Shown here: positions 347 to 46,606 of the stretch, one piece after another
How the letters are laid out: every line of letters starts with the position of its first letter
Position numbering within the stretch: the stretch's first letter is position 1
Source of the DNA: an uncultured Collinsella sp.
GTDB lineage: Bacteria; Actinomycetota; Coriobacteriia; Coriobacteriales; Coriobacteriaceae
DNA length: 64,000 nt
Direction of reading: 5' to 3'
Assembly: GCA_900541685.1 (NCBI GenBank)
Contig: UQKM01000003.1
Coordinates: 69,576 to 133,575 of the forward strand
Translations under genes and position numbers: made by a program
The notes under the pieces: model-generated
Database searches by the model: none
Told to the model about the DNA's origin: nothing
What the model saw: only the letters and a program-made list of their open reading frames with translations

Positions 347-379
347 CCTACCAAAAAGGGACAGGTTTATTTTGGCAGG
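347..379 (+). repeat. hairpin repeat A1 (CCTACCAAAAAGGGACAGGTTTATTTTGGCAGG + conserved 3' flank TTTTATCTGGGCAAA)
   Basis: One of five near-identical copies. Confidence 0.9.
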
Positions 380-628
380 TTTTATCTGGGCAAATGCCAC
401 AACGCCAACGGCAAGACGGAACTGCTAAGGCTTGCAGATGAAGCCGACGCCAGCGAAACGCCGCAGGTAGAGCGCACGCCAGCGAGAGCCCGCCGTTTGA
501 GCCAAGGTGCCGTGAAATGAAAAGGCGCTGACCTTCTGGTCGCGTCTTTGAAATTGAACGGCAGATTGGCCAAACGGCGGGCTCGCAGCGTCGAGGGGTT
601 CCGGCGTTTGGTAAAACGCCGGAACAAA

Positions 629-1564
629 TCAGTGTTCGATCCAGCAGCGAAGCGTCTCGCCAGCCTGAAGATGACGAAGGTTCTCGGCGGCGATGTCGAC
701 GACGTTGTTGAGCGTGGCCTCTAGGTGGAACCAGCCGGAGACGTGCGGCGTGATGAGCATGTTGGGCGCATCCCACAGGGGGCTTGCCGCGGGCAGCGGC
801 TCGGGGTCGGTGACATCGACCGCGGCGCCGGCAAGGTGTCCGGACTCGAGTGCTGCAACCAGGTCGTCGGCAACCACAAGGTCACCGCGGCCGCCGTTGG
901 CAAAGAAGGCGCCCGGCTTCATCGCGGCGAAGAACTCGGCATTCGCAAGACCGCGGGTCTCGGGCGTGCTGGGCATAAAGGATGCGACGATATCAGCCTC
1001 GGCCAGGCGCTCGGACAGGGCGTCCATGCCGTCCATGTCCTCAAATACAATGGGGTAGACGAGCGGATGACGCTTGATGCCGCGGACGTGCGCGCCCATG
1101 TTGCGGCAGAGCGTTGCGAAGTGACCGCCAATGTCGCCCGCGCCCAGCACCAGCACATTGGCATTTTTGAGCGAGGTGACCGGGCCCAAGTCCTCCCAGC
1201 GATGCTCGCGCTGCAAGTCGTGGTAGCCGGGCAGGCGCTTCATCATGGAAAGGACCATGGCAAACATGTGCTCGCTCACGGCCTGGCCGTAGGCGCCGAT
1301 TGAGCAAGACAGCTTGGCGTCGGCCGGCACGGTGCCGGCGGCAAGGTAGTCGTCATAGCCCGCGGTCTGCAGTTGCAGCAGTTGAAGGTGCTCGCATGCG
1401 GGGAGCATGGCGGGGTCAACGTTGCCCAGAATCACGTCGGCGTCAGCGACTTGCTCGTGCGTGACAGCGTCGGCGCTCGTGTAGATAAAGTCCTCGCCCG
1501 GAGCGCTCGACTCGAGGATCGCTCGATGGCGGTCGTTGACGGGCAACAAAACCAAGATGTTCAC
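629..1564 (-). CDS. D-isomer-specific 2-hydroxyacid dehydrogenase, NAD-binding (PGDH-like)
   Basis: GAGDIGG Rossmann motif and the 2-hydroxyacid dehydrogenase catalytic region. Start re-called to the GTG at 1564, 6 nt after GGAGAGGA; the longer ORF N-terminus is a translation of repeat element A2. Confidence 0.85.
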   Translation of the reverse strand: MNILVLLPVNDRHRAILESSAPGEDFIYTSADAVTHEQVADADVILGNVDPAMLPACEHLQLLQLQTAGYDDYLAAGTVPADAKLSCSIGAYGQAVSEHMFAMVLSMMKRLPGYHDLQREHRWEDLGPVTSLKNANVLVLGAGDIGGHFATLCRNMGAHVRGIKRHPLVYPIVFEDMDGMDALSERLAEADIVASFMPSTPETRGLANAEFFAAMKPGAFFANGGRGDLVVADDLVAALESGHLAGAAVDVTDPEPLPAASPLWDAPNMLITPHVSGWFHLEATLNNVVDIAAENLRHLQAGETLRCWIEH

Positions 1565-1584
1565 AAGCAGTCCTCTCCGTTCAA

Positions 1585-1617
1585 CCTGCCAAAAAGGGAC
1601 AGGTTTATTTTGGCAGG
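1585..1617 (+). repeat. hairpin repeat A2
   Basis: CCTGCCAAAAAGGGACAGGTTTATTTTGGCAGG, between the map stop and the HDH start. Confidence 0.9.
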
Positions 1618-1693
1618 TTTTATCAGGCAAAACGTTCAAACGAAACGCCGGATGCAAGACGAGCATGCCCGTCAGCATCCGGCGCATCCACAG

Positions 1694-2581
1694 CTACCAG
1701 CTCAGCAGCTCGTAACCGTCCTCGGTCACCACGAGCTGTACTTCGCACTGGGCCGAATCGCTACCGTCCTTGGTGCGCACACACCAACCGTCACCCTTGC
1801 TGATCTTGATGTCGGGCGCTCCGGCATTGACCATGGGCTCGATGGTAAAGACCATGCCCGGAGCCATGATGGTGTCCACGTCGGGCGCCTCGGTGGTAAA
1901 GCCCACAAACGGGTCCTCGTGGAACTCCTTGCCAATGCCGTGTCCGCCGTACTCGCGCACCACGCTAAAACCGGCATCCTCGACGGTCTTTTGCACGGCC
2001 TCGGCCATAACGGAGAGCGGCAGCCACGGCTTGACGGCGGCCAGGCCCGCTTCCACGCTGGCGCGGGTGACATCGACCAGGCGCCGGCGCTCAGCTGAGA
2101 CCTCGCCGATGCAGAACATGCGGCTCGAGTCGCTAAAGTAGCCGTCCAAGATCGTGGAGCAGTCCACGTTGATGATGTCGCCCTCGTGCAGCACATCCGC
2201 ATCGCAGGGGATACCGTGGCAGACGACGTCGTTGATCGAGGTGCACACGCTCTTGGGGTAGCCCTCGTAGTTGAGGTCGGCCGGCGTGCCACCGTGCTCG
2301 ACGGTGTAGTCGTAGATCATCTGGTCGATCTGGTTGGTGGTCATGCCCGCGGCGGTGTGCTCGCCCACGTAGTCGAGCACGCCCACGTTGATAGCCGCCG
2401 AGCGCTTGATGCCCTCGATATCGGCGGGCGTTTTGTAGAGCGTGCGGGGCAGAACCTCCCAGCCCTCTTCCCACAAGCGCTCGAGGCGCTCATCAAAGGC
2501 GCTATGGCATTTCTTATATTTCTTGCCGCTGCCGCACCAGCAAGCGTCGTTGCGGCCGGGCATGGGTCCTTTGTCAAACAT
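1694..2581 (-). CDS. map: type I methionine aminopeptidase with N-terminal SEC-C zinc-finger motif
   Basis: MetAP fold residues (HGIGxxFHE) plus N-terminal PGRNDACWCGSGKKYKKCH. Start at the ATG 7 nt after GAAAGGAAG. Confidence 0.9.
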   Translation of the reverse strand: MFDKGPMPGRNDACWCGSGKKYKKCHSAFDERLERLWEEGWEVLPRTLYKTPADIEGIKRSAAINVGVLDYVGEHTAAGMTTNQIDQMIYDYTVEHGGTPADLNYEGYPKSVCTSINDVVCHGIPCDADVLHEGDIINVDCSTILDGYFSDSSRMFCIGEVSAERRRLVDVTRASVEAGLAAVKPWLPLSVMAEAVQKTVEDAGFSVVREYGGHGIGKEFHEDPFVGFTTEAPDVDTIMAPGMVFTIEPMVNAGAPDIKISKGDGWCVRTKDGSDSAQCEVQLVVTEDGYELLSW

Positions 2582-6962: not shown

Positions 6963-7026
6963 GAGCGTGGATAATCTCCCGTTTTAGGCCCGGTGGCGGT
7001 CTCAAAGTGGGAGATTATCCACGCTC
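6963..7026. repeat. 18-bp perfect inverted repeat (GAGCGTGGATAATCTCCC / GGGAGATTATCCACGCTC) with 28-nt loop
   Basis: Read directly from the sequence. It begins 27 nt after the Hpt stop, at the high-GC / lower-GC transition. Confidence 0.8.
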
Positions 7027-7141
7027 GTTCGGTAAGTGTCCAAAAATTCACTCTCGCGCACTGGCGGGGCTTTCCGCATGCAATCCATATCGTTGTTCGA
7101 TAAACTATTCGGATAACGATAGATTCGATGAGGGTGAGTGT

Positions 7142-7702
7142 ATGTCCAACAGCGTTCAGCGTATGGCCAAGGCGGGCGAGACTGTAAGGAAGCTTGGCTT
7201 TTGCATGGCGGTCGTTTTTGCGGGAATGCTCGTCGCTTTTGCCGCGTTGGTTGTTTACGTGATCTGGTATGCGGTTGCAAACGTTGTTTCTGTCGATTCT
7301 TTCGGTGTCGTGACGCTTCTCGATGGCGGGAGCATCGTTATCCCAAGCGGGCTGTGCCTGGCACTCGTCGTGAGTGTTTCGCTTGTCGTTTTGTGCGGAA
7401 TCAGCCGTGACATTTCGCGGGGCGTATCGCCCTTTACCAGGGCGCATGTGCGGCTTATCCGTGTTCTCGCGCTTGCCTTTGCTGTTAACGCCGCGGTTTC
7501 GCTTGTTGGTGCCTATGGATCGGTCAATCTTACCATTGGTGGGCTGGAGCTTTGCGTCGTGCCTCATTCCTTCGTTATCGCGATTTGCCAGGGCGTTGCC
7601 TTTGACGCGGGGTCGCTTATCGGCGCGGCCGTCTGTTTGTTTGTCTCGGTGATCTGGAGCTATGCCTCGCTGCTCCAGGAGCAGTCTGACGAGCTTGTGT
7701 AG
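7142..7702 (+). CDS. DUF2975-like small polytopic membrane protein
   Basis: About 4 TM helices and about 186 aa. Immediately upstream of a YozG-type XRE regulator, which is the classic DUF2975/HTH pairing. Start at the ATG after GAGGGTGAG. Confidence 0.6.
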   Translation: MSNSVQRMAKAGETVRKLGFCMAVVFAGMLVAFAALVVYVIWYAVANVVSVDSFGVVTLLDGGSIVIPSGLCLALVVSVSLVVLCGISRDISRGVSPFTRAHVRLIRVLALAFAVNAAVSLVGAYGSVNLTIGGLELCVVPHSFVIAICQGVAFDAGSLIGAAVCLFVSVIWSYASLLQEQSDELV

Positions 7703-7710
7703 GAGGAAAC

Positions 7711-8040
7711 ATGAGCTATCTCATCATCGAGCTTGAGACGCAGCTGCTTAAGACCGGAAAGACCAGCTCTGATCTGATTCGTGCCACGGGGCATACTCCG
7801 GCTAATATTTCTAAGCTAAGAAATGGAAAAATTAAAGCTATTCGTCTTAAGACGCTTCTTGAAATCTGTGATGAGCTTGATTGTCAACCGGGAGATATTA
7901 TTCAGCGCGTGAGCGAGAAAGAGCTCGAGGAACTTATTGTCGAGCGCGCGAAGAATGCCGTGAGGCAGATGCGGGATGGCAGAGGCAATGAGGCGTCGCT
8001 TCCGACATCGGTCTTCGCTGTAGATTTGAGCGACGAGTAG
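7711..8040 (+). CDS. XRE-family helix-turn-helix transcriptional regulator (YozG-like)
   Basis: HTH segment DLIRATGHTPANISKLRNGK. Strong SD GGAGGAAAC. Lower GC than the flanking DNA. Confidence 0.8.
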   Translation: MSYLIIELETQLLKTGKTSSDLIRATGHTPANISKLRNGKIKAIRLKTLLEICDELDCQPGDIIQRVSEKELEELIVERAKNAVRQMRDGRGNEASLPTSVFAVDLSDE

Positions 8041-8185
8041 CATAAAAAGAACAACTATAACGAAATATCAGTGTAACGGAACCCGTGTCTAACACGGATT
8101 CTTTGTTTATTAATTATCTTGACAAATATAAGTTATCGGCAAACAATAACATCAAGAACGAACGATAAAAGAAAGGAGGAACGAT

Positions 8186-8314
8186 ATGAGCTGGATTGTA
8201 AAGCCGAGTTATGTGGACCCCGGTGGTGGGTGCAACGGTTACTGCAAGGCATTCTGTGGAGCACGCGTCTGCGTCAATAACTGCAGCAAAAACTTGTGTG
8301 TTGTTAATTTCTAG
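8186..8314 (+). CDS. 42-aa six-cysteine RiPP precursor peptide candidate (MSWIVKPSYVDPGGG-CNGYCKAFCGARVCVNNCSKNLCVVNF)
   Basis: Below the ORF-track length cutoff. Strong SD AAAGGAGGA 6 nt upstream. Leader ends in GGG, then the core carries six Cys spaced every 3-4 residues. Followed by a stem-loop plus T-run, with a rSAM/SPASM enzyme and ABC transporters downstream. Confidence 0.6.
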   Translation: MSWIVKPSYVDPGGGCNGYCKAFCGARVCVNNCSKNLCVVNF

Positions 8315-8322
8315 CAGTTGCA

Positions 8323-8362
8323 GCTGCTGCCAGGCGACAGTCTGGCAGCAGCGGTTTTGTTA
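8323..8362 (+). terminator. intrinsic terminator/attenuator between precursor peptide and downstream ABC genes
   Basis: 11-bp stem GCTGCTGCCAG/CTGGCAGCAGC, loop GCGACAGT, then GGTTTTGTTAT. Confidence 0.6.
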
Positions 8363-8382
8363 TCAAGCAGAATAGGAGGCCA

Positions 8383-9108
8383 ATGAGCGCATCAGCGATA
8401 AAGCTATCAAAGGTGTCAAAGCGCTATGGAAAACGGTGTGTGTTGCATGACGTTTCCTTCGAGGTGAATCAGTCTGAACTTTGCGCCCTTGTTGGTGCAA
8501 ACGGGGCGGGCAAAAGCACGCTTATTAAAATAGTGCTGGGCCTCTGTGAGCCATCGTCGGGGAGCGTGGAGCTCTTTGGAGGCAAGTCGAAAAAAGAGCT
8601 GAGCCTGATGCGTACGCGTGTCGGCTATGTGCCAGATTCCAGCGGAGCATACCAATCCCTCAGTGCGGTGGAGAATCTTCGGATCCGATGTGCGGAATGG
8701 GGGCTCGATGAGACACGTGAGGTTCCTCGCGTCTTGGGCCTAGTCGGGCTGGACGTCGATGAGAAAAAGAGCGTGAGCAGTTTTTCTCTGGGAATGAAAC
8801 GGCGACTGGATATAGCTACGGCTTTGTTGGGCGACACCGATGTACTAATTTTCGATGAGCCGGCAAATGGGTTGGACCCGCTGGGCATCGAGAGTATATG
8901 GGCCCTTATCGGCCGATTGAATCGAGAACAGGGTAAGACCATGCTCATCTCTAGCCATGATTTGGATGAGTTGGCATCGGTTGCAACAAGTTGCGTGTTT
9001 CTTCATGACGGCGAACTGCTAAAAAAGGAATCGATGGACGTCATAAGGGATGGGGCGTCGTCCCTAAAAGAGTATTACAGGCGCTTGATGAAGGCGGTCT
9101 CGCTATGA
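8383..9108 (+). CDS. ABC transporter ATP-binding protein (immunity-type, ABC-2 partner)
   Basis: Walker A GANGAGKST, signature and Walker B motifs. SD AGGAGG. Confidence 0.9.
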   Translation: MSASAIKLSKVSKRYGKRCVLHDVSFEVNQSELCALVGANGAGKSTLIKIVLGLCEPSSGSVELFGGKSKKELSLMRTRVGYVPDSSGAYQSLSAVENLRIRCAEWGLDETREVPRVLGLVGLDVDEKKSVSSFSLGMKRRLDIATALLGDTDVLIFDEPANGLDPLGIESIWALIGRLNREQGKTMLISSHDLDELASVATSCVFLHDGELLKKESMDVIRDGASSLKEYYRRLMKAVSL

Positions 9109-9929
9109 AGCGGGCGATCCATCCCATAAAGGCGGACATGATGCGTTTACACAGGATGTTTCCGGCGCAGTTTTGTCTTGCGCTTATGCTGGCGTTCGGC
9201 CTTCTCTTCGGTGTCTTTCTAAAAAGCGGAACAACGTTGCTAGCCTTTGGCAATAGCGTCTGCGGGGAGGATATTGGATTCTTTTGGAATGTAATCGACT
9301 CTTCTGCACCTGATGAGTCCCTTGTGCGCAGTGCTTTTGCTGGCACCTCTCTGTTCGTTCCGCTCATCGTTTGCCTGGTGATTTTACAGGAGCGCGGCTA
9401 TGAAGAGGGATGCCGAATTTCTTCAGCAAGAGGTCTTGCCCGCTTTAACGGGGTTCTGGCACATGTACTTTCGTCTGCTTTAATAATCGGCGCAGCATAT
9501 AGTGCGCTTTGCCTTCTTCTTTTTGCAATAGCCGTAACACGTGGAGGGCAAAACTACGTGCATGGCATGCTGGCTGCATTTTTGCCTGCGATGATAATCA
9601 ACGCCGTATTGGTGATATCGGTTGCGTTGGAGACGATGACCATCTATCGGATTACAGACAGCGCTGTATTGAGCGGGGCTGTAATAATAATTGGATTTGT
9701 CATGAGCTTGACGCTCTACGGAACCTTCCTTCAGGCACCTATACCATCCTTGCGATGGATCTTCCTCCTTCCGGGGCCGTACCTTGGAGCCGGATGTGCC
9801 CTTGGGTATAGCGATATGGGGCAGCTGACGCTTCTGGGATATGGCGTGGCAGCTGGCTGTCTATCGGTATTGATTTACGCTCTCGTGACCTGTCGTGTCG
9901 GAGGTGTGCTCAATGGCTCGTCAGATTAA
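9105..9929 (+). CDS. polytopic membrane protein, ABC-2-type permease candidate
   Basis: ATGA start/stop overlap with the ATPase gene; about 6 predicted TM segments. Confidence 0.55.
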   Translation: MKRAIHPIKADMMRLHRMFPAQFCLALMLAFGLLFGVFLKSGTTLLAFGNSVCGEDIGFFWNVIDSSAPDESLVRSAFAGTSLFVPLIVCLVILQERGYEEGCRISSARGLARFNGVLAHVLSSALIIGAAYSALCLLLFAIAVTRGGQNYVHGMLAAFLPAMIINAVLVISVALETMTIYRITDSAVLSGAVIIIGFVMSLTLYGTFLQAPIPSLRWIFLLPGPYLGAGCALGYSDMGQLTLLGYGVAAGCLSVLIYALVTCRVGGVLNGSSD

Positions 9930-10731
9930 AAGGTTCCTCCATTCAGAATTGAAGCATGTGAGCGAATGGACGTACGTCTTAATCCTGGCAATTTATGCGT
10001 GTATGGTGATATTGCAGCTTAATTCTTTCCCGATGTGGTTCTGTAGCCTCCGCGAGGGCAGTTTCTTGGGCTTTTTCCCAGACCCGACGCTTAAACTGTC
10101 GGCAGAGGACGCCCTTCTATTTGGTAATGCAGAGGTTTTTCGCGGCTTGCTGTTCAATGTGGCCCCGTTGGCTCATGCATTGTTCTTTCCGCTTATCGCG
10201 CCTTGCGTTGTCCCACGCTTTGCCAGTTCGAGCTTTGTCGAGGAACCGTGGGGGCTGTCGGAGGCTCGGGGAGGGAAGCGGGCGTGCGTTACCGTTGCGC
10301 GAGTGATGCTGTCTTCTTTCGCCCTATTGGGCGCGTTTATCCTGTCAAGTGTCGTTTTGTACTGTCTTAACTGCGCAATCGTTTTGGATGCTCAACAGTA
10401 TTTCAACCTGAATATGTTTTGCGATCGACTTCTTCTGGCGAGTGCGGTCTGCCTTGCATACGTGGTCTCTTGCGTGATCGTTGTTTCCTATTTTGGATCC
10501 GGCTTCGGTCCTATTGGCATGCTGTTGCTTGTCAACGTCGTAACGATCTACATACAGGTCGGAGCCAATTCCATGCTTCCGCTTCCAGCCTCGATGCTCA
10601 TGTGGATTTGCGGCGTGACCCCGTTGGGGGACGGTCAATGCGTTTCGATTTTAATTGACTGCCTCATAAACGTAGCAAGCGTTTTTGCCATCTGCTTTAC
10701 GGTCGACCGATTGCGGTCGAGATTTCTTTGA
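9913..10731 (+). CDS. polytopic membrane protein, second permease candidate
   Basis: Start re-called to the ATG after GGAGGTG. Hydrophobic throughout. Confidence 0.5.
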   Translation: MARQIKRFLHSELKHVSEWTYVLILAIYACMVILQLNSFPMWFCSLREGSFLGFFPDPTLKLSAEDALLFGNAEVFRGLLFNVAPLAHALFFPLIAPCVVPRFASSSFVEEPWGLSEARGGKRACVTVARVMLSSFALLGAFILSSVVLYCLNCAIVLDAQQYFNLNMFCDRLLLASAVCLAYVVSCVIVVSYFGSGFGPIGMLLLVNVVTIYIQVGANSMLPLPASMLMWICGVTPLGDGQCVSILIDCLINVASVFAICFTVDRLRSRFL

Positions 10732-10752
10732 TTGTTTGTGAGGGATAAACAT

Positions 10753-12045
10753 ATGAGGCCGTCTCAATACAACCTGATTGAAGACCACGGCGAAAGAACG
10801 CTGGTGATGAATTCAAAGACTGGCGCAATCCTTTCGTTGGATAAACAACATGCAGAAAGTATGTGCCGCATGGTATCGGGAACCGAATGGGAGCCAGATG
10901 AATTGCGCGAAGCGTTGCTTCAAGGAGGAATGCTGTTAGAAGATGATCGTGACGAAAAAGAGGAAATGAAGGCGATGGGCCGTCTTGTTCGATTTTCCAA
11001 TCGCTCTCTAGGCATGACGATAGCACCGACATTGGAGTGCAACTTCTGTTGCCCATACTGTTATGAAAAAGGACAACGCAAAACGACAATGACTCCGGAG
11101 GTTGAAGACCGGCTTGTCTCATTCGTGAAGGAGCGTTCACGGGGGCTGAGCGAGCTTGAGATCGGTTGGTATGGTGGAGAGCCGTTGCTGCAAGTCGATA
11201 GAATTCAGCGGCTTACGGAGCGTATAAAGGCGATCCTTAATCCAGAGTGCTCCTATTCGGCATCCATCGTTACAAATGGATATCTTCTGACGCCAGAAGT
11301 GGCCGAGACTCTCGCGGCTTGTGACGTCAAGATGGCTCAAATAACCTTGGACGGGTCTCGAAAGGACCACGATTCTCGGCGGTTCTTGCGGAACGGACAG
11401 CCGACGTACGATGCGATTCTAGACAACGTTTCTAAAGTCACGCATCTGTTGGATATTTCCATCAGGTGCAATGTCGATGCCCATAACATTGTCGGTGCTG
11501 GCGATTTGCTGGATGCACTCGAGGAAAAGGGCCTTAAAAACAAGGTTGGATTCTATCTGGCGCCTGTCGACAATATTAACGATACGTGCCCAAGTGACAG
11601 TAGTTGTTTTTCGATGGAGGCGTTTTCTCAGGAAGAGCTGGACTTTTATAGTCATGCAGTTGATAGGGGGTTCCACGTTGACCTGACGGTGCGCTTTAAT
11701 CCGGCTATATGTGGCGCCGTTTGTGCAGGGTCGTTTGTAGTGGATCCGGAGGGCTATCTTTATAAATGTTGGGACGAAATCGGGATGCGTGAACGCTGCG
11801 TCGGTACGCTTGCCGAAGGGCCGAGGATGAATGCTCAGCTGGTCCAATGGCTAAACTATGAGCCGAGCGATCATGAGTGTGAAGAGTGTTTTGCCTATCC
11901 CTCATGCATGGGAGGTTGCCCTAATCACGCTCTTCATGGAGGGTCAAAACAGTGCGTATCTCAAAGGTATCAGGTGCGCCAACGAATGATTTTGACCGAG
12001 AAGGCTCAGCGATTGCTTTCGGAACTGGATTCAGCTCATGTTTAA
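10753..12045 (+). CDS. radical SAM/SPASM peptide-modifying enzyme with N-terminal RRE-like domain (sactipeptide/ranthipeptide-type maturase)
   Basis: CNFCCPYC rSAM cluster motif. C-terminal Cys-rich SPASM region (CGAVCAGS...KCW...CEECFAYPSCMGGCPNH). About 90-aa N-terminal beta-strand/helix segment consistent with a PqqD-like recognition element (RRE). Start at the ATG 7 nt after GAGGGA. Confidence 0.85.
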   Translation: MRPSQYNLIEDHGERTLVMNSKTGAILSLDKQHAESMCRMVSGTEWEPDELREALLQGGMLLEDDRDEKEEMKAMGRLVRFSNRSLGMTIAPTLECNFCCPYCYEKGQRKTTMTPEVEDRLVSFVKERSRGLSELEIGWYGGEPLLQVDRIQRLTERIKAILNPECSYSASIVTNGYLLTPEVAETLAACDVKMAQITLDGSRKDHDSRRFLRNGQPTYDAILDNVSKVTHLLDISIRCNVDAHNIVGAGDLLDALEEKGLKNKVGFYLAPVDNINDTCPSDSSCFSMEAFSQEELDFYSHAVDRGFHVDLTVRFNPAICGAVCAGSFVVDPEGYLYKCWDEIGMRERCVGTLAEGPRMNAQLVQWLNYEPSDHECEECFAYPSCMGGCPNHALHGGSKQCVSQRYQVRQRMILTEKAQRLLSELDSAHV

Positions 12046-13657
12046 TCTCTGCGCAAGAACAATAATTAAGAATCCAAAGTATATAACCTATCTTCTAATG
12101 TGCCTGCTCTCGCTTGTGGTTGGTCTCGCAATTCCTTTTCTGACGGGACAACTGGTCAACAACTTTGTCGGTGTCGCGCGAGATGGGGAAAGCGCAATCG
12201 CCATCGGCGCTGAGATAGCAGCGCTGGGTATTGTGCGAGCCGGTTTGAATTGCGTCAGTGAGCTGGTCTATGTCGATCTGCAAACACATGTGGGATTTGC
12301 ATTGAATGAAGAGGTGATAAGTCACGTTCAAAGGCTACCACGGGTCTTCTTTTCTAATTTTGATGCCTCATATTGCAACCAACAGATTAATCATGACGCT
12401 AACGATTTGGTGATATTTGTTATAAACGCAAGTGTCCAAAGCGTGAGCAATATAGTGACGTTGCTTGTGGTGTTTGTTGTCCTGGCGACCATAAACGGTC
12501 ACCTGGCAATGCTGTGTATGGCTCTTGGCTTAATAGGTGGCGCGGTCTATTCGCTTTTCAAAAAGTGTTTGTTCGCAAGAAGTTTCGAGGCTCAAGAGCA
12601 GGAGGCTCGATTCTTTTCCGATCTGGAGAAGCAGCTTAGCAACGCACAATTTATCCGCAGACATGTTCTATTCGAGGTTTTCAAGCAAAGGCTTGAGCAC
12701 TCTTTTGCAGAGCTATATCGTTGCGTTTATCAGAACCAGCAAATTAATGCGACCTTTACGTTTGCCAACACTGTCGTCACATCTTTGGCACAGGGTGGAA
12801 TCTTGATCCTGGGCGCAAAGGAAGTTCTCGACGGCAATTTGCTGCCCGGCTATCTTATGACGGCGCTAAGCTATTACTCCTATTATTCTTCGGCTATTGA
12901 ATTCTTCCTTGCGCTGGGCAAGGACTATCAAACGTCAAAAGTATCCTACGAGCGTTTACGGCGCTTGCTGGACATGCCAGAGGGCTCAAACGGGGCCATT
13001 ATCCTCGCCGATGTTTTCGAGGTGAGCTGTTCCGAGCTGGCGTATAGCTATCCTGAGTCTGAAAAAACCGCGTTCAGAGACATTCGAGCTTCTTTGGAAA
13101 AAGGAAAGGTATACGGAATCGTTGGGCCGAACGGTTCCGGTAAGAGCACGCTGCTGGATGTGATAAGCGGTTGCGATCCAGAAAACTGCAAGGGTGATAT
13201 TTGGATTAACGACAAGCCCCTGAGCTCTCTGGACCGCTATGCGCTGCGGAAGCGCAATATCGGGATTACTGAGCAGGAGCCGCCCCTGACCGAGGGGTCG
13301 ATACGGGACAATTTAACTCTTTGCTGCAGAAGCACTGAAGAGCGTGACCTTGAGAGCCTCATTGAGAGAATGGGGCTTAAAAAGATGGTCGATTCAAGTG
13401 GTGGACTTGATGTCGAGCTGGACGATAAGCAGAACAACATTTCAGGAGGGGAGAAGCAAAAAATGGCGATAATTCGCCAGCTGCTGAAAAACCCGGACGT
13501 GATGATGTTTGATGAGCCGACATCTGCACTTGACAGTCAAAGCAAGCAGGCGTTTATCGAAATCCTTAAGGAAAGAAAGGGGCGACATATCACGGTCATC
13601 GCTACGCACGACCCTGTGCTTATTTCGGCATGCGATGAGGTGATTGAAATTGCCTGA
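12038..13657 (+). CDS. fused ABC transporter permease/ATP-binding protein (exporter type, no C39 peptidase domain)
   Basis: N-terminal 6-TM domain. C-terminal GPNGSGKST, LSGGEKQK and DEPTSALD motifs. ATG overlaps the maturase stop. Confidence 0.9.
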   Translation: MFNLCARTIIKNPKYITYLLMCLLSLVVGLAIPFLTGQLVNNFVGVARDGESAIAIGAEIAALGIVRAGLNCVSELVYVDLQTHVGFALNEEVISHVQRLPRVFFSNFDASYCNQQINHDANDLVIFVINASVQSVSNIVTLLVVFVVLATINGHLAMLCMALGLIGGAVYSLFKKCLFARSFEAQEQEARFFSDLEKQLSNAQFIRRHVLFEVFKQRLEHSFAELYRCVYQNQQINATFTFANTVVTSLAQGGILILGAKEVLDGNLLPGYLMTALSYYSYYSSAIEFFLALGKDYQTSKVSYERLRRLLDMPEGSNGAIILADVFEVSCSELAYSYPESEKTAFRDIRASLEKGKVYGIVGPNGSGKSTLLDVISGCDPENCKGDIWINDKPLSSLDRYALRKRNIGITEQEPPLTEGSIRDNLTLCCRSTEERDLESLIERMGLKKMVDSSGGLDVELDDKQNNISGGEKQKMAIIRQLLKNPDVMMFDEPTSALDSQSKQAFIEILKERKGRHITVIATHDPVLISACDEVIEIA

Positions 13658-13687
13658 CGGGTTAGTGGGCCTAGCATATCAAATTCA

Positions 13688-13721
13688 GGGGGGCGGGCAC
13701 TGTAGCTGGTGCCCGCCCCCC
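13688..13721. terminator. GC-rich hairpin between convergent genes (13-bp stem GGGGGGCGGGCAC/GTGCCCGCCCCCC)
   Basis: Read directly. No strong T-run on either side; it marks the island's downstream edge. Confidence 0.5.
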
Positions 13722-13756
13722 TGGCATGAAAGGCTTTAGCCTGTGTGGTTCGTGAA

Positions 13757-14566
13757 CTAACGGGCCTGCTTAACCTTGGCCGCTGCTTCGACAAACGACT
13801 TCCACAGGTTAAAGTCGGTCTCGAGCGTCTTCCACGTGTACTCAGGGTGCCATTGCACGCCCAAGCAGAATGGCTGGCCTTCGACCTCGATGCACTCGGG
13901 AACGCCGTCGGTTGCCTTGGCGACCAAACGCGTGCTCTTACCCAGATGATCGACGCAGCAGTGGTGTGCGGAGTTGGTCTGGATCAGCCTGTGCCCGCCA
14001 AGCGCGCGCTCCAACAGCGAGCCCGGCACGACCTCGACGGGATGCACGGGGTCGTTGAGCACGTGGCTATGGCGCCACTGCGTGCGGCCCTCGCGAGCGC
14101 CCAGGCTCGGCACGTCCATGCACAGGGTGCCGCCAGTGGCGACATTGAGCAACTGCGTGCCGCGGCAGGTGGTAAAGAGCGGCTTTTTGGCGCGGAGTAC
14201 CTCGCCGACCAGCTTAAACTCAAAGCTATCGCGGATCTCGCAGCAGAGGGTGGGGTCGTAGGGTCGATCATCGCCCCAACGTTTGGGGTTGACATCGGGG
14301 CCGCCGGGAATGGCGATGCCGTCGGCGATATCGACGTAATGACGGATGACCTCAATGTCCTCGGTGATGGACATCTGCAGCGGCAGGCCGCCGGCGGCAA
14401 GGATGGCATCGACAAAGACACTTGCGATTTCCTCGTTGGGGGAGAGCGTTTCGCTTAAAAACGGCTTCGCCTCTTCCCAGCGCGGCGCCACCAGGATGAG
14501 CGGACGGTCGGCGGGGTCGACGTTGACGTGCGGGGTGTATGACGATGAAGTGCGAGTTCCGATCAT
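13757..14566 (-). CDS. class I glutamine amidotransferase-like / gamma-glutamyl hydrolase (peptidase C26, PuuD-like)
   Basis: GATase-1 catalytic Cys region (TCRGTQLLNVATGG) and His near the C-terminus. Start taken at MIGTRT; it cannot extend past the glnQ stop at 14619. Confidence 0.7.
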   Translation of the reverse strand: MIGTRTSSSYTPHVNVDPADRPLILVAPRWEEAKPFLSETLSPNEEIASVFVDAILAAGGLPLQMSITEDIEVIRHYVDIADGIAIPGGPDVNPKRWGDDRPYDPTLCCEIRDSFEFKLVGEVLRAKKPLFTTCRGTQLLNVATGGTLCMDVPSLGAREGRTQWRHSHVLNDPVHPVEVVPGSLLERALGGHRLIQTNSAHHCCVDHLGKSTRLVAKATDGVPECIEVEGQPFCLGVQWHPEYTWKTLETDFNLWKSFVEAAAKVKQAR

Positions 14567-17047: not shown

Positions 17048-18043
17048 CTAGGCGCCGATCTCGGGCAGCTCGGGAACATTGGTGTCGCCCGTACGGTCAC
17101 CGATGCAGATCTGCCACAGCTCAGTCCAGGTGCCGTCGTCCTCGATCTTCTTAAGGAAGTCGTTAACGAAGGTGACGCCGTCGGAATCGAGCGGCAGACC
17201 GATACCATAGGGCTCCTTGCTGCCGAAGGGCTTGCCGGCGATCTTGTACTTACCGGGCTCGCGGACCAGGGCGCTCTGCTGCATGTTGTTATCGATGACG
17301 TAGGCGTCAACGCGGCCCTGCTGGAGTGCCTGGCGGGCCTCCTCGTCGGTCTTGAACTCCTGCTGGCTGGCCTTGGGAGCGAACTCCTCCAGGATGGCGG
17401 GGCCGTTGGAGCCGGACTGGACGGCGACGTTCTTGTCGGCCAGGTCGTCGACGCTCTTGATGTCGTCGTTATCGGCGAGCACCAGGATGGCCTGCTGGGT
17501 GTAGTAGTAGGGGCCGGCGAAAGAGACGAGCTTCTTGCGCTCGTCAGTGATGGTGTAGGTGGCAAAGACGGCGTCGACCTGGCCATTCTGCAGGACGGAC
17601 TCGCGCGTGTCCGAGGTCACCTGGGTGATCTCGACCTTGTTCTCGCCCAGAATGTAGTTGGACAGGAGCTGTGCGATACCGGCGTCGAAGCCGCGGGTCT
17701 GACCGTCTTTCTCGTTGAGGAGGGAGAAGAGCGTGGAGGTCTGAACGCCACCGATCTTAAAGACGCCGGCGTCCTTGACGGCCGTGGCCCAGGTGCTGGC
17801 GGCGATGGCATCGTCATCGGCCTTGGGGCCGTTGTCGACGAGCTTGTCGAATGCCTTGGCGTCGAGCGTGGTGGAAACTTCGGTATCCTCGGAGCTCTTG
17901 GAGGAGCCGGCGGCGGAACCCTTGTCAGCCTCGGCGCTGGTGTCGGAGCAGCCGGCAAGACCAAGGCCGGCGACGGTTGCGAAGGTGGCGGCAACGAAGC
18001 CGCGGCGGTCGAGAACGACCTGCTGGGAGAGGTTCTTGCTCAT
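17048..18043 (-). CDS. amino-acid ABC transporter substrate-binding lipoprotein
   Basis: LAGC lipobox and periplasmic-binding-protein family 3 fold. Confidence 0.85.
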   Translation of the reverse strand: MSKNLSQQVVLDRRGFVAATFATVAGLGLAGCSDTSAEADKGSAAGSSKSSEDTEVSTTLDAKAFDKLVDNGPKADDDAIAASTWATAVKDAGVFKIGGVQTSTLFSLLNEKDGQTRGFDAGIAQLLSNYILGENKVEITQVTSDTRESVLQNGQVDAVFATYTITDERKKLVSFAGPYYYTQQAILVLADNDDIKSVDDLADKNVAVQSGSNGPAILEEFAPKASQQEFKTDEEARQALQQGRVDAYVIDNNMQQSALVREPGKYKIAGKPFGSKEPYGIGLPLDSDGVTFVNDFLKKIEDDGTWTELWQICIGDRTGDTNVPELPEIGA

Positions 18044-18160
18044 AGTAGAACACCTTTCTCAATAAAATCCCTAGCGGTTGAGTAGAGTTATACCCTATCC
18101 CGCTCAAATGGGTCAACACGAAATAACTCAGAAACATACTTGCCTTATGGGTAATTCTAC

Positions 18161-18193
18161 CTACCAAAAAGGGACAGGTTTATTTTGGCAGGT
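18161..18193 (+). repeat. hairpin repeat A3
   Basis: Identical to A1 including the flank TTTTATCTGGGCAAACG. Confidence 0.9.
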
Positions 18194-18357: not shown

Positions 18358-18359
18358 AA

Positions 18360-18565: not shown

Positions 18566-18586
18566 ATCGCGTCGCGAAAATAAAAA

Positions 18587-40808: not shown

Positions 40809-41630
40809 ATGCTCAACGACCTCTACCATATGCTTGATCCCGTCGCGATCTCGGCGGGCCCCATCACCATCTACTGGTACGGCCTGGCCTACGTGGTCGG
40901 TGCTCTGCTCACGGCGGTTGTTATGTACCGCACGCAGCGTCGTTGGGGCTTCGACATTACGATTGATGACCTGACGAGCGTCGTGGTCGGCGCGGTCTTT
41001 GGCCTCATCATCGGCGCGCGCCTGTTTTACGTCGTCTTTTACGGCGATGGCTACTATTGGACCCACCCGTTCGAAATCTTTGCCACCAACGAGGGCGGCA
41101 TGAGCTTCCACGGCGGCCTGGTGGGCGGCATCTTGGGCGGCATCATCGTGTGCCGCATGTACAAGCTCGACGCCTGGACCATCGCCGACCTTGCTGTGAT
41201 CGGTGCTCCGCTGGCGCTGTGCCTGGGACGCTGCGCCAACTTCGTCAACGGTGAGCTGTGGGGTAAGCCGACCGATCTGCCCTGGGGTGTGGTCTTTGGC
41301 GGCACCGCGGGCGATATGCCGCGCCATCCCTCCCAGCTCTACGAGGCGTTTCTAGAGGGCATTGTGCTCTTTTGCATCCTGCAGGTGCTCAGTCGCAAAA
41401 AACCGCTGCTGCCCCAGGGTACGTTTATGGGCGTCTTTGTGATGGGCTACGGCATCGTTCGCTTTTTGATTGAGTTTGTGCGCGTGCCCGATGAGCAGCT
41501 GGGCTATCTGCTGGGCGGCGTCATCACCATGGGTCAGCTGCTGAGCCTGCCGCTCGTAATCGCGGGCCTGGCGCTCATCATCTTCGCCCGACACCGCAAT
41601 CGCCCCCAGCGCATCTACCTCGACGTCTAA
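40809..41630 (+). CDS. lgt: prolipoprotein diacylglyceryl transferase
   Basis: Lgt signature (FHGGLVGGILGG...; GRCANFVNGELWG). Confidence 0.9.
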   Translation: MLNDLYHMLDPVAISAGPITIYWYGLAYVVGALLTAVVMYRTQRRWGFDITIDDLTSVVVGAVFGLIIGARLFYVVFYGDGYYWTHPFEIFATNEGGMSFHGGLVGGILGGIIVCRMYKLDAWTIADLAVIGAPLALCLGRCANFVNGELWGKPTDLPWGVVFGGTAGDMPRHPSQLYEAFLEGIVLFCILQVLSRKKPLLPQGTFMGVFVMGYGIVRFLIEFVRVPDEQLGYLLGGVITMGQLLSLPLVIAGLALIIFARHRNRPQRIYLDV

Positions 41631-41663
41631 CCACCACAAAGGGGACAGGCACCTTTGTGGTGG
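41631..41663 (+). repeat. hairpin repeat B2
   Basis: Identical to B1; starts 0 nt after the lgt stop and lies 46 nt from A4. Confidence 0.9.
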
Positions 41664-41709
41664 TCTGCTGGGCAACGACGACAGAACCGTAACGTTTTCC
41701 CAGATAAAA

Positions 41710-41742
41710 CCTGCCAAAATAAACCTGTCCCTTTTTGGCAGG
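41710..41742 (-). repeat. hairpin repeat A4 (reverse orientation)
   Basis: CCTGCCAAAATAAACCTGTCCCTTTTTGGCAGG, preceded by CCCAGATAAAA (the reverse complement of the conserved flank). Confidence 0.9.
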
Positions 41743-41766
41743 TTTCTAGAAAGGCTCTTTGGACTG

Positions 41767-43949
41767 TGAAGGATTCCGACCTCTCCACAACGGCTGCGCG
41801 CGACGCTGCCCGCATCGTCTGGTTTAAGCGCTACCCCGCCAAGCAGACGCTCATCGCATTTCTGCTCGCGCTGTTGGCGACCACGGCGTTTTCCATCGAT
41901 CCCGCGCCGGTCTCGAGCAACGCAGTCTTGGCGATTGACCCCAAAGCCTCGGGCATGCTGTACGTGTGCTACGAGGTGCTCCTCTCGTTTGCCGGCCATA
42001 CCGACGCGGTCATGCTGCTTGCGCTTGCCTGCCTGCTCACTCTGCCGTTTCGCTACGTATTCTTTGGCCGCGGCGATGCTTGGCGTCCTTCGGTGATCCT
42101 TCCGTCGCTGTTCTTTGCCGTCTGCATGGTGTTTGGCCGCAGCTACGACCTCACCGATTCTGCCGAGATCGTACTCGGCGACAAGGCTCGCATCATCTGC
42201 GCCTGGATAGGCGGTGCGGGCTGGATGCTCTTGGCGGTCGTTGCCTTCTACCTGGCTTTTGAGTGTCTAGATTGGCTGAGCTCTCGGCGCATTCCGTTTT
42301 CCGAAGCGCACTTTGGCCGCGTATGGCGTGTGGCTCACGCCGTACTCTCGGTCCATCCCTTTGCCGGGCCCTTCCTGGTGCTTATGGTCGCCTGGGCGCC
42401 CATGCTCATCGCTTCGCTGCCCGGCCTTTTTATGGGAGATACGGGTGCGCAGATTCGCCAGTGGTTCAACTACCCCAACGGCACGAGTGACTACCTGCGT
42501 CTGCTCAATCCCAATGTGTTGCTCAACGGACATCACCCCGTGGTGCACACGGCTATCATCGGTTCGTGCGTCCAGCTGGGGCTTTCACTGTTCAACAGTG
42601 CCAACGCAGGTCTTGCCATCTACACCTGCGCTCAGTTCGTCATTACGGCCGCCTGCATGGCCTATTCCATCTCGTCGCTGCGCAAGCTGGGCGTGAGCTT
42701 GCCGATCCGCGGCGTGATCTTGCTGTTCTTTGTGTTTATGCCCATGTTCTCCAACTACGCGGCCCTGCTTACCAAAGATGTGCTGTTTGCCGACGCGTTT
42801 TTGGTGCTGTTGGTGCAGACCGTGAAGCTCGTGGCCTGCGGCCTGCCCCGTCGCGATGCCAATGCCGAGCGTGCGGGCGAACAGAGGCCCGTACTCTTTG
42901 CGCGCCATGACTGGCTGCTGCTCGCTCTGGGTGCCATGGGTTCCACGTTTCTGCGCAACGGCGGCCTGGTGTTTCCCCTGGCGGCATGCGTAATCGCGGC
43001 GGCGTTTTGCGCATGGGACGCGCATGTGGCTCGTCGTGCAGTCAAGCAGGCCGGTGCTGCGCCTTCGGGCGCCATCTCACGTTTCCGCTGGGTGGGAGTT
43101 CTTGCGGTGCTTGGACTCTGCCTTGCCTCTAATATGTACTTCACCAAGGTCTTTATGCCGGCGCACGACATTACGCCTGGTTCCAAGCGCGAAATCCTCT
43201 CGATTCCGTTCCAGCAGACGGCTCGTTTCGTCCAAAAGCACGACGGCCTCAACTCGGGTGTCAACCCTACGGTTAAGGAGGACGGTACTATCGTGGAGGC
43301 TCCTTGCGACGGCTTGGTGACCGACGAAGAGCGTGCCGTGATCGACCGTGTGCTCAAGTACGACAATCTGGGCCGCCGCTACAACCCGGATAAGTCGGAC
43401 GCCGTCAAAAATTGCTTTAACGAGTACGCCTCGCAGGAGGACATCAAGGCCTATTTTGAGGTCTGGGCGCAGATGTTCAAAAAGGATCCCGAGTGCTACA
43501 TCTCGGCGCTCATCAATAACTACTACGGCTACTTTTATCCGAGTGCCCGCGATGCGTGGGTCTACAGCACGGCGCGCAGTGCCGAGATTATGGCGAAGCC
43601 CGATAACCTCAAGTACTTTGACTTCCATCCGGTCGATAGCAAGGTTGTGCGCTGGTGCGACCACCTGATCAACCTGTATCGCGTGGCGGTGCAGCGCATT
43701 CCGTTTATCTCGCTCACCATGAGCTCGGCCACCTATGTGTGGATTATGATCGCCGTGGTGGTCTATCTGCTACGTCGTCATTCATGGCGCGGTCTGGCCA
43801 TTTGGTTGCCGCTGCTGGGCGTGCTTGCCGTGTGCCTGATCGGTCCCTGCAACGGTTCGACCTATATGCGCTACCTGTATCCGGTTATCGCCTGCATGCC
43901 CTTTGCCATCGGCGCCACCATCACTCGCAGCGACCTCCTCTGGTCCTAA
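41767..43949 (+). CDS. large polytopic membrane protein (about 730 aa; possible YfhO/DUF6020-like glycosyltransferase-type membrane protein). Start uncertain
   Basis: Many TM helices N-terminally plus a C-terminal soluble region. The annotated ORF start at 41655 is a translation of repeat elements B2 and A4, so the real start lies downstream (GTG 41767 or later). Confidence 0.55.
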
Positions 43950-43950
43950 T

Positions 43951-43983
43951 TTGGTGCAAAGGGGACAGGTTACTTTGCACCAA
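43951..43983 (+). repeat. hairpin repeat C (TTGGTGCAAAGGGGACAGGTTACTTTGCACCAA)
   Basis: Same loop motif with a third stem sequence; starts 1 nt after the large membrane protein stop. Confidence 0.85.
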
Positions 43984-44114
43984 AGGGTGGCATCATCACG
44001 ACGCCTTCATTTTGGGGTTTATCTCGCAGGCCAGTAGGTATATCATAACGACGTTTGTTTATATTGCCCGAGCATCTGCGCTGGGCTTTAGGTCGAAACC
44101 GATAGGAGACACGT

Positions 44115-44921: not shown

Positions 44922-45087
44922 CGCCTGCACGGGTTAAGCCGTGCATATCTGGGCATAATGAAGCGAGCATGCAAGCCTCGTGGAATAGATGAGCCGGATC
45001 CGCGTGCGTATGGCACCGGACCCGGCTCTTTTATAATGATGCGAATCGTTTTGCATTCTGTGGATCGAGATTTGAAGGGAGCGCCGC

Positions 45088-45633
45088 ATGCGCGTGCTCA
45101 AACGAGCCCTAGCGATCGTATATCTTGCCGCCGCCGTCGTGGCGCTGGGCACGTTGGTCTGCCAGTTTTGGGGGCCATATACCTACCGCTTTATGCTGCT
45201 GATGCGTGACCCTATGCCGCGCATTGTCGTTACGGTGTGCGCCGGTGTCGTGGCGCTCGGCGTGCTGGCGGTCTTCTTCCGCCTGATGTTTGCTCGCCGC
45301 GAGCCGTCCTGCGTGCATCCGGCAGGGGAGCGCAATATCGAGGTCACGCTCGCGGCTCTCTCCTCGTGTGCCCGCGCTGCTGCCGAACGCGATGACCGCG
45401 TGATGGTCGAGCATATCGAGGCGCGTGTTCAGGGTTCCGACGAATCGCACGTTCGTTTTAAGGTCGAAGCCATCGCGCTCGATGATAAAGACGTTGCTTC
45501 CCTTGCCACTGCGATGCAGCAGCGTATCGAGCGGGCCTGCGACACCATGCTCGGTACGCCGGGCACGACTGCGCGCGTTCGCTTTTTGCCGTCCAAGACT
45601 ACCGTCCAGACCGTGGAGGTTTCCGGTGAGTGA
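45088..45633 (+). CDS. AmaP-like alkaline-shock-response membrane anchor protein
   Basis: About 180 aa with two N-terminal TM helices, upstream of DUF2273 and Asp23 genes in the conserved operon order. ATG after GAAGGGAG. Confidence 0.5.
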   Translation: MRVLKRALAIVYLAAAVVALGTLVCQFWGPYTYRFMLLMRDPMPRIVVTVCAGVVALGVLAVFFRLMFARREPSCVHPAGERNIEVTLAALSSCARAAAERDDRVMVEHIEARVQGSDESHVRFKVEAIALDDKDVASLATAMQQRIERACDTMLGTPGTTARVRFLPSKTTVQTVEVSGE

Positions 45634-46003
45634 TACCAACCAAGACAAGACCGCCCGCACGCCGCGCCTGACGATCGATCAGAACGCTACGCCGGCAGGC
45701 GAGTCCGCCGACACCAAGCCCGAGGCCGGCGAGCAGCACGACAGCGCCGCCAACGACTTTGACGAGGCCATGGGTCTCATCAAAGGTACGGGCGCTGCTA
45801 TCTGGAGCTACGCCGTGCGCCACCCCAACACTACGCTCGGCGCCGTGGCAGGCTTTATCCTCGCCGTGCTGGTACTTACGTTGGGCCTGTGGGACACGCT
45901 CGTCATCGCATTCTTTGTGCTTATCGGTGCCGTGATCGGCCAGATTCGCGACGGCGAGAACGGTATCGTCAACTTCTTCGGCCGTCTGTTTAGCGGCCGC
46001 TAA
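45627..46003 (+). CDS. DUF2273-like small integral membrane protein
   Basis: GTG overlaps the upstream stop. Two TM helices near the C-terminus. Confidence 0.5.
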
Positions 46004-46048
46004 ATATGTATTCGACTGTCGCATCCGCGGCAGGCATAAGGAGGAACC

Positions 46049-46573
46049 ATGGCTTTTAACACGAAGGTCGATGTGGCCGATACCGAGCTCGAAGCGAATG
46101 AGGCCGTCGTCGATACCGGAGACGTGACGCTCGAGGACGAGGCGCTCGTCGAGGCCGAGTCCGATGCGGACGAGGACAACGAGGAGATGGACGAGGAGGC
46201 GGACGAGTCCGAGGACTCGCTGACCTATTCCAACGGCGTGATCGAGAAGATCGTCGCCATGGCCACCCGCGAGGTGCCGCACGTTCTGGGCATGAAGGGC
46301 AACCTCATGCACTTTGTGCAGGAGCAGTTTGGTGCCGAGAACCTGACCAAGGGCGTGACGGTCGAGGTCACCGACGACAACCGCGTGGTCGTCAACATCT
46401 CGGTCATCATCGAGTACGGCGCCTATGCGCCTGCGATCTTTGACGACGTTAAGGCGCGTGTCACCGAGCGTCTGGCCGCGATGACCGGCCTTGAGGTGGC
46501 GGGCGTCAACCTGCGCATCGAGGATGTCATCACCCCCGAGGAGTACGAGCACCGCACCAGCCAGCACGAGTAA
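46049..46573 (+). CDS. Asp23/Gls24 family alkaline shock protein
   Basis: LTYSNGVIEKIVAMATREV Asp23 core plus an acidic N-terminal tract. SD AAGGAGGAA. Confidence 0.85.
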   Translation: MAFNTKVDVADTELEANEAVVDTGDVTLEDEALVEAESDADEDNEEMDEEADESEDSLTYSNGVIEKIVAMATREVPHVLGMKGNLMHFVQEQFGAENLTKGVTVEVTDDNRVVVNISVIIEYGAYAPAIFDDVKARVTERLAAMTGLEVAGVNLRIEDVITPEEYEHRTSQHE

Positions 46574-46606
46574 CCTACCAAAAAGGGACAGGTTTGTTTT
46601 GGCAGG
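46574..46606 (+). repeat. hairpin repeat A5
   Basis: CCTACCAAAAAGGGACAGGTTTGTTTTGGCAGG, starting 0 nt after the asp23 stop. Confidence 0.9.

Follow-up and report, generated by a model that had tools for sequence, protein, structure and literature searches.

Repetitive extragenic palindromic (REP) sequences and their accompanying REP-associated tyrosine transposases (RAYTs) have been studied almost entirely in Proteobacteria. The canonical REP carries a 5′ GT[AG]G tag at the foot of its hairpin (PMC6006769, PMC3733652). RAYT-like genes with terminal inverted repeats on either side (TIRtrons, TIRYTs) were described by Di Nocera et al. (2013); these repeats have the motif GGGGWSAS in common and, in some species, form moderately abundant families, partly as dimers (PMC3733652). 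Quentin et al. (2018) equated the TIRYTs with TnpA-Y1 subclass 2.1, or RAYT group 1, whose members have C-terminal helix-turn-helix (HTH) extensions of the Bac_DnaA_C, HTH_23 or HTH_28 type, and reported no REP-like sequences beside subclass 2.1 genes (PMC6006769). Bertels et al. (2017) saw flanking 16-mers reach high copy numbers in no RAYT groups other than 2 and 3 (PMC5581495). Here, we analyze element A, a 33-nt hairpin repeat with a conserved 3′ tail that occurs five times in a 64-kb stretch of DNA from an uncultured Collinsella sp. (contig UQKM01000003.1; hereafter, the window). Element A is probably the chief REP-like family in a system of the REPtron/TIRtron type, whose cognate enzyme would be a single-copy, vertically inherited Y1 transposase of the RAYT/TIRYT class. 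Our literature search found no description of REP/RAYT-type repeats in Collinsella or other Coriobacteriia.

In the window, the 19-nt core of the repeat, CCTRCCAAAAAGGGACAGG, has five zero-mismatch matches (347, 1585, 18160, and 46574 on the + strand and 41724–41742 on the − strand) against a chance expectation of 0.03, and none of 100 shuffles gave five. An nhmmer profile built from many copies returned the same five and no degenerate copies in the 64 kb. The unit is about 52 nt long and consists of AA, the 33-nt hairpin CCTRCCAAAAAGGGACAGGTTTRTTTTGGCAGG, and the 17-nt tail TTTTATCTGGGCAAACG. Its copies are as follows:

345–396, + strand: element A copy 1, AA plus a CCTACC..GGCAGG hairpin plus the 17-nt tail (71.7 bits)
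1583–1634, + strand: element A copy 2 (66.3 bits)
18158–18209, + strand: element A copy 3 (71.8 bits)
41693–41744, − strand: element A copy 4, with its 33-nt hairpin at 41710–41742 (71.5 bits)
46572–46623, + strand: element A copy 5, in sense orientation (66.1 bits)

An initial annotation, made from the letters of the window without database searches, had listed these same five copies, and all of its positions hold except 18161, which becomes 18160. It had also put their identity above 95% over about 50 nt, which was too high: pairwise, the copies agree at 44–49 of 50 positions (88–98%), and the 33-nt hairpin alone at 31–33 of 33. Across the 63 unique sites described below, an A directly precedes CCTRCC in 59, and the next position upstream is A in 45; thus, the element starts 2 nt earlier, with AA, and its stem has 12 bp, AACCTGCCAAAA/TTTTGGCAGGTT. 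The predicted folding energy of the hairpin is about −16 to −24 kcal/mol. Window copies with G at position 4 fold better than shuffled sequences (z = −2.2 to −3.8), and sense-strand copies with A at position 4, where the A:C mismatch pointed out in the CCTACC copies was indeed seen, fold no better than shuffles.

Element A extends well beyond the window. An exact scan with the 25-mer CCAAAAAGGGACAGGTTTNTTTTGG, using one genome per species, captured at least 120 loci, essentially all of them from Collinsella isolates or metagenome-assembled genomes (MAGs). These loci total 937 kb and contain about 175 copies by nhmmer, and clustering by upstream flank resolved 63 distinct genomic sites. The possibility that the repeat was peculiar to the window, which the initial annotation had raised, can therefore be set aside. 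Density is about one copy per 13 kb in the window and about one per 17–19 kb for non-index copies; with a Collinsella genome of roughly 2.3–2.5 Mb, this implies on the order of 100–200 copies per genome. About 60% of unbiased copies have the tail; the others lack it. A metagenome scan with YebC returned mostly distant taxa and about four useful Collinsella contigs.

The candidate enzyme is encoded in one of the 120 randomly captured loci (L075) and not in the window. An exploratory tblastn with three Y1 transposase sequences matched L075:4836-5255, where an open reading frame (ORF), L075:4503-5261(−), encodes a 252-aa protein. NCBIfam NF047646, “REP-associated tyrosine transposase,” aligns with it over profile positions 2–146 of 146 (E 2.5e-19), Pfam Y1_Tnp scores 33.7 bits against a cut-off of 23, and the PDB yields a single match, 4ER8 (E. 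coli TnpA-REP; E 1.8e-5), to which the HUH and catalytic Tyr motifs align. Residues H60, H62, Y119, N123, and P124, in the motifs H60-I-H62 and Y119-IHL-N123-P124, are invariant in eight homologues, and Y---NP is the class-2 signature (PMC6006769). The nearest homologues outside Coriobacteriia combine Y1_Tnp with HTH_7 or Bac_DnaA_C domains, and the 110-aa C-terminal extension of the Collinsella protein, in which Pfam calls no domain, aligns with homologues of this kind. Proteins with 81–97% identity are abundant in gut metagenomes, where one 90% cluster has 2701 members.

We located the gene in seven further contexts (L203–L209), in the same order as in L075: argS, CarD-like, RAYT, HD, and Aldedh. 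Inverted copies of element A, tails inward, lie on both sides of it in all Collinsella contexts examined, one at −300 nt (+) and one at +80 nt (−); at a distance of about 0.8 kb there is a third. A RAYT/TnpA_REP-like gene, which the initial annotation had suggested looking for elsewhere in the genome, is thus present in Collinsella. Orthologues keep this syntenic locus over a protein identity range of 97% to 48%, and the gene appears to be vertically inherited. Its recovery is consistent with a single copy per genome.

The flanking repeat changes together with the enzyme. A 65%-identical orthologue at the same locus is flanked by CCTGCAAATTAGGGACAGGTTTATTTTTGCAGG, in which the C6-G28 pair is now A-T; a 52% orthologue is flanked by CCACCCTTTTAGGGACAGGTTRTTATCGGGTGG; a 48% orthologue is flanked by AAAACCACCACAAGAGGGACAGTCCCTCTTGTGGTGGTTTT, with five copies in 20.7 kb; and inverted GGGACGTGTTT repeats flank a 41% orthologue, which sits at a different locus. 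None of these four loci has family A itself. In a gapless alignment of 12 variants, GGGACAG (G12–G18) is invariant and nine of ten stem pairs change on both sides, a covariation count that is partly circular because the variants were hand-picked as hairpins. The telling result is therefore the fixed register of the core and not the pairing.

The same core recurs in other hairpins of the window. The 8-mer GGGACAGG is found there eight times against 1.9 expected, every time inside a hairpin. The related hairpins are:

41631–41663, + strand: hairpin B, CCACCACAAAGG-GGACAGGCA-CCTTTGTGGTGG, directly after the lgt TAA stop
18358–18394, + strand: hairpin B, second copy, AACCACCACAAAGG..CCTTTGTGGTGGTT, following a 12-codon mini-ORF
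43950–43984, + strand: hairpin C, TTTGGTGCAAAG-GGGACAGGTTA-CTTTGCACCAAA, directly after the TAA of the DUF6020 gene, with the same core and another stem
27255–27283, − strand: hairpin D, TGTGACAAAGGGACAGTCCCTTTGTCACA, directly after the TAA of gene 26313–27254, with the GGGACAG core on the minus strand

Hairpin B, itself a dispersed family, resembles element A in its 33-nt length and in having GGGACAG at positions 12–18. Hairpins B, C, and D each lie directly 3′ of a TAA stop. The published motif GGGGWSAS is fitted at 8/8 positions by GGGGACAG in hairpins B and C and at 7/8 by AGGGACAG in element A.

With TIRtrons and TIRYTs, the Collinsella system shares a Y1/HUH transposase homologous to TnpA-REP, a C-terminal extension, inverted flanking repeats, and GGGGWSAS. 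It differs from them in its repeat, a self-complementary hairpin of 33 nt that has the motif at its loop and is followed by a conserved 17-nt tail, and in the abundance of this repeat (about one per 13–19 kb) across a whole genus of Actinomycetota. With the REPtrons of Enterobacteria and Pseudomonas, it shares short extragenic palindromes at gene ends in hundreds of copies, a single-copy, vertically inherited Y1 transposase with inverted flanking repeats, several related sub-families per genome (as with the Y, Z1, and Z2 REPs in E. coli), and, at a minority of sites, inverted doublets, including one doublet-to-singlet collapse, with insertion sequence (IS) elements beside some copies. Unlike REPtrons, it has its conserved determinant in the loop and not in a foot tag, its copies are mostly singlets, its protein is only about 23% identical to E. 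coli TnpA-REP, and its host is Gram-positive. Judged from sequence, it appears to be a system of the REPtron/TIRtron kind that best resembles the TIRYT branch but has a true, abundant hairpin repeat.

The placement of element A at gene boundaries is regular, with the hairpin end always toward the boundary. In 31 of the 63 unique sites, a stop codon lies 0–3 nt upstream, and 26 of these 31 stops are TAA, as against only about 15 of the 44 predicted genes in the window, so that the AA of the element overlaps the stop codon. These sense copies place CCUGCC/GGCAGG plus UUUUAU right at the stop and are very often followed, within 5–20 nt, by an unrelated GC-rich terminator. At about 24 of the 63 sites, the element is instead reversed relative to both neighbors, with its hairpin end a few nt upstream of the Shine-Dalgarno sequence of the next gene (e.g. 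window copies 2 and 4). Such antisense copies have no U-tract on the transcribed strand, their flanks being of the type GG/UGGGAGG or GG/UAGAAU. All 17 close pairs are tail-to-tail, and these doublets occupy only about 8 of the 63 sites, most copies being singlets. Neighboring copies are not co-oriented (25 same, 42 opposite).

The five window copies illustrate these arrangements. Copy 1 is antisense to a 2-hydroxyacid dehydrogenase gene (629–1570, −), about 230 nt past the stop of that gene. Copy 2 lies between the stop of an M24 peptidase gene (1694–2635, −) and the start of the dehydrogenase gene, its hairpin end a few nt upstream of the GGAGAGGA ribosome-binding site of the latter. Copy 3 is located between dxs (18620–20401, −) and a solute-binding-protein gene (17048–18043, −), antisense to both. 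Copy 4 separates lgt (stop at 41630) from the DUF6020 gene, its hairpin end lying about 24 nt before position 41766, the likely GTG start. The AA of copy 5 forms the final two bases of the TAA stop of an Asp23-family gene (46049–46573), and a separate canonical terminator, independent of the element, follows at 46628–46670, where one had been predicted. By Pfam, the flanking genes (2-hydroxyacid dehydrogenase, M24 peptidase, solute-binding protein, dxs, lgt, DUF6020 protein, Asp23-family protein, and YitT) are ordinary housekeeping genes; all five copies are therefore intergenic, as first described.

The recurring peptide ..PDKTCQNKPVPFW.. in the predicted ORFs is the reverse-strand translation of element A. 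It had been taken for an N-terminal artefact in three ORFs, which is correct for the over-extended ORFs 629–1687 and 41655–43949; in the spurious ORF 348–776, it forms the C-terminal end. As a small ORF, element A has no ATG and no conserved frame. At the gathering threshold, an Rfam scan of the window passed only an FMN riboswitch located elsewhere and no family for element A, and permissive Rfam scans over copies 3 and 4 gave only chance matches to miRNA, snoRNA, and other unrelated models. Reading both strands of element A by eye for −35/−10 hexamers gave weak matches only. Pattern scans for sigma-70 promoters and terminators left element A uncalled, which is uninformative because its loop exceeds the 8-nt limit of the scan. 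An integron attC-like cassette boundary was also considered, as copies 1 and 2 flank one gene in direct orientation, and was rejected since the copies are dispersed and not arrayed and contain no GTTRRRY core.

We compared orthologous copies between species. Loci had been captured by an exact hairpin match, so divergence was computed only on copies whose locus would have been captured anyway. Pairwise divergence was lowest in the hairpin (3.5%); the tail differed by 5.6%, the 120 nt upstream (mostly coding) by 5.3%, and the 120 nt downstream (non-coding) by 10.0%. This indicates that the hairpin is constrained or homogenized, though not frozen. The chief polymorphism changes the C of GGCAGG to T, and it occurs in either arm (positions 4 and 30; e.g. 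window positions 350, 18163, and 46577). The G4/C30 combinations are GC in 53 copies, GT in 32, AC in 32, and AT in 9, so that the arms vary independently, and 32 + 32 of 131 copies carry a single-arm variant. The variants do not track the transcribed strand. We therefore rejected RNA-level compensatory evolution in family A; the single-arm pattern suggests a deamination or methylation hotspot rather than structural selection.

Element A is present in both genomes in 560 of 580 orthologous comparisons. In a related contig, L121, copy 4 is mostly deleted, which is a partial deletion and not an empty site. A doublet at L012 is a single tail-less hairpin in three other species, probably through doublet-to-singlet collapse between the repeated arms. 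L100 has an extra stretch of about 100 nt that includes element A and is bounded by the microhomology GGTTGGTT/GGCAGGTT, and three species have none. The L093 site exists in three states across species: hairpin B only; tail, spacer, and B; or TAA, hairpin, tail, spacer, and B. The same locus contains, at a distance of 1.44 kb, a donor that is 98% identical, and the L093 gene is without its final four codons, its stop being the junction TAA. The pattern resembles gene conversion with variable tract length anchored on hairpin B.

We infer that the transposase mobilizes element A and that the repeat may have a terminator role. Acting on single-stranded DNA, the enzyme would bind the hairpin, recognize its core, (A/G)GGGACAG, on the 5′ side of the loop, and cleave and rejoin the hairpin to give new copies. 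Copies may also spread or be homogenized by gene conversion between neighboring repeats, of which one case was seen. They would persist only where they are tolerated or useful, either overlapping a TAA or just upstream of a ribosome-binding site. At TAA stops, the A-tract, GC-footed stem, and UUUUAU could then act as a terminator or 3′ stabilizer.

It is important to note several points that weigh against this interpretation. Within Collinsella, the association of gene and repeat is one syntenic locus and thus a single independent observation, and the two flanking copies also abut the stops of convergent neighbor genes, as copies elsewhere do. The NF047646 score of 69.6 bits is below the equivalog cut-off of 80. 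The GT[AG]G tag is absent from the foot of the element A hairpin, which reads AACCTRCC / GGYAGGTT; GTAG occurs in the element only inside the stem and only in T30/A4 variants, so the Collinsella system is not a canonical GTAG REP. The covariation across variants is partly circular, as stated, and the G4/C30 change in family A is not compensatory, since the arms are independent. No clean insertion footprint or empty site was found among the 580 orthologous comparisons, and the few gains resemble gene conversion on hairpin B (L093) or a microhomology insertion of about 100 nt (L100). Orientation relative to GC skew shows no bias (91 vs. 71, t = 1.47), a comparison for which 8-kb loci give low power.

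An alternative is that the repeats are host intrinsic terminators or mRNA-stabilizing hairpins that have no transposase of their own, copied by duplication and gene conversion and kept by selection, with the Y1 gene either coincidental or using terminators as landing sites. Intrinsic terminators built from repeats, such as the Neisseria DNA uptake sequence (DUS) pairs, likewise place a conserved hairpin after stops, with an A-tract and a T-tract that are possibly bidirectional, and the Mycobacterium TRIT motif is another example of a terminator built from a repeated motif. Element A has the right form (an A-tract, a 12-bp stem with a GC-rich foot, and TTTTAT), it abuts the stop at nearly half of its sites with the preference for TAA given above, and unrelated native terminators of the window also start at TAA (e.g. 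that of dxs, 18582–18620). The three states of L093 with their nearby donor are a gene-conversion signature, and the hairpin evolves more slowly than the non-coding DNA beside it. Yet half of the copies lack the orientation or the equipment for termination. At about 24 of 63 sites, the element is antisense to each neighbor and has no U-tract on the transcribed strand, and many sense copies are followed by an independent strong terminator. Termination needs neither an invariant 7-nt loop core in fixed register nor a conserved 17-nt tail, and it would not lead us to expect a core equal to the published motif of TIRYT-flanking repeats, a cognate transposase, or a flanking repeat type that changes with the Y1 orthologue. 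The terminator explanation thus accounts for placement, but it leaves unexplained why there are antisense copies, a tail, an invariant core, and co-variation of repeat and enzyme, and we regard it as unlikely. The remark in the initial annotation that element A is not merely the local terminator was reasonable, given the independent terminators after sense copies and the roughly 40% of sites that are antisense without a U-tract.

Two other origins seem less plausible still. A DNA-level recognition site of the host, whether an uptake sequence within terminators as in Neisseria and Haemophilus, a KOPS-like motif, or the operator of a global regulator, would explain why the GGGACAG(G) core recurs in otherwise different hairpins more often than expected, and why element A is conserved across species in either orientation relative to genes. 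However, known uptake sequences are 5–10 times denser than the approximately one per 8 kb observed here, every window occurrence of the 8-mer is inside a hairpin, and near-identity over 50 nt that includes spacer and tail far exceeds what an operator needs. The lack of GC-skew polarity and the orientations of neighboring copies also speak against a KOPS-like role, and overall we consider host recognition very unlikely. A classical miniature inverted-repeat transposable element (MITE), derived from an IS and mobilized in trans by its DDE transposase, would likewise be small, non-coding, multicopy, and intergenic, and IS200-like, IS608-like, and IS3-like elements do occur in the sampled loci, sometimes beside a copy. 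Against this, the ends of element A (5′ AACCTGCC, 3′ GGGCAAACG) are not mutual inverted repeats, no target-site duplication is visible at the 63 sites, and the IS copies are inserted next to pre-existing elements (L017 against its orthologues) and are not their parents; such an origin is hardly credible. The initial annotation had proposed a REP/MITE-type dispersed element. Its REP-like half is borne out by the dispersal of the copies and the RAYT-like gene, and its MITE half is not. Nor are the copies pieces of one longer mobile element with coding capacity, so its interpretation is supported overall.

Returning to the REPtron/TIRtron-type reading, a broader and more speculative proposal, which we hold only tentatively and consider doubtful, is that the domesticated Y1 transposase and the GGGACAG-core hairpins (A, B, C, and D) constitute the standard gene-boundary module of Collinsella, with the enzyme retained because it maintains and renews modules useful to the host. 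The repeat would supply two thirds of the TAA together with a terminator or 3′ stabilizer for many genes, and a 5′ hairpin for others. If so, this would be a tractable Gram-positive example of the proposed mutualism between REPIN-RAYT systems and their hosts, and subclass 2.1 (TIRYT) enzymes, for which an absence of REPs was reported, would for the first time be tied to a hairpin family of high copy number.

Several further consequences follow from a repeat family that spans the genus, with roughly 100–200 copies, in an abundant human gut actinobacterium. The association of a TIRYT-type enzyme and GGGGWSAS with a true hairpin repeat, in which the motif has a fixed position at the loop, provides a concrete substrate for biochemistry. 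The overlap with TAA (26 of 31 abutting stops) raises the question of whether the repeat shapes the 3′ ends of genes. On the practical side, element A explains recurrent spurious ORF extensions in annotations through its translated peptide, may cause contig breaks and mis-joins in many Collinsella MAGs, and is a handle for strain typing.

Mobile elements were seen near several copies. An IS200-like tnpA (L017:1321-1749) lies right beside a copy of an A variant at a position that is IS-free in five orthologous loci, IS3-like ORFs (L107:3335-4947) adjoin a truncated copy, and an IS608-like tnpA (L020:4485-4904) is 1.5 kb from an element A doublet. The REP-like elements of Collinsella may be IS landing sites, as has been reported for REPs elsewhere. 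Two matches were to viral contigs (L201 and L202). Positions 1–2526 of L202, an IMG/VR contig catalogued as viral, are collinear with window positions 41526–44052 at 92.6% identity, and L202 is chromosomal Collinsella DNA or a prophage-adjacent region.

Around copies 1 and 3, the window has additional features. Between the stop of the left-edge gene (TAA, 52–54) and copy 1 are about 290 nt (55–346) that include a 60-codon ORF (55–237). In three other Collinsella species (L056, L054, and L082), element A abuts the stop of this gene directly, which points to an insertion in the window or a deletion in the other species. At 18320–18394 (+), a 12-codon mini-ORF, MNGYSFFAPTMI, has a good ribosome-binding site and is followed immediately by hairpin B; the dxs and solute-binding-protein genes on either side are encoded by the other strand, and the mini-ORF could be a leader peptide or small gene. 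Two palindromes of about 60 nt follow (18423–18487 and 18506–18566), with arms TCTCGATCTGTAACA / TGTTACAGATTGAGA, a motif that is also found after an element A copy in the viral contig L201. They appear to be another repeat family or an operator pair.

Elsewhere in the window, whose GC content is 59.6%, the flavin mononucleotide (FMN) riboswitch (RF00050, 93.4 bits) lies at 59998–60190 (+), upstream of genes starting at 60175. From about 7000 to 14000, few ORFs have the high GC at third codon positions that is typical elsewhere in the window, and this region may have been horizontally acquired.

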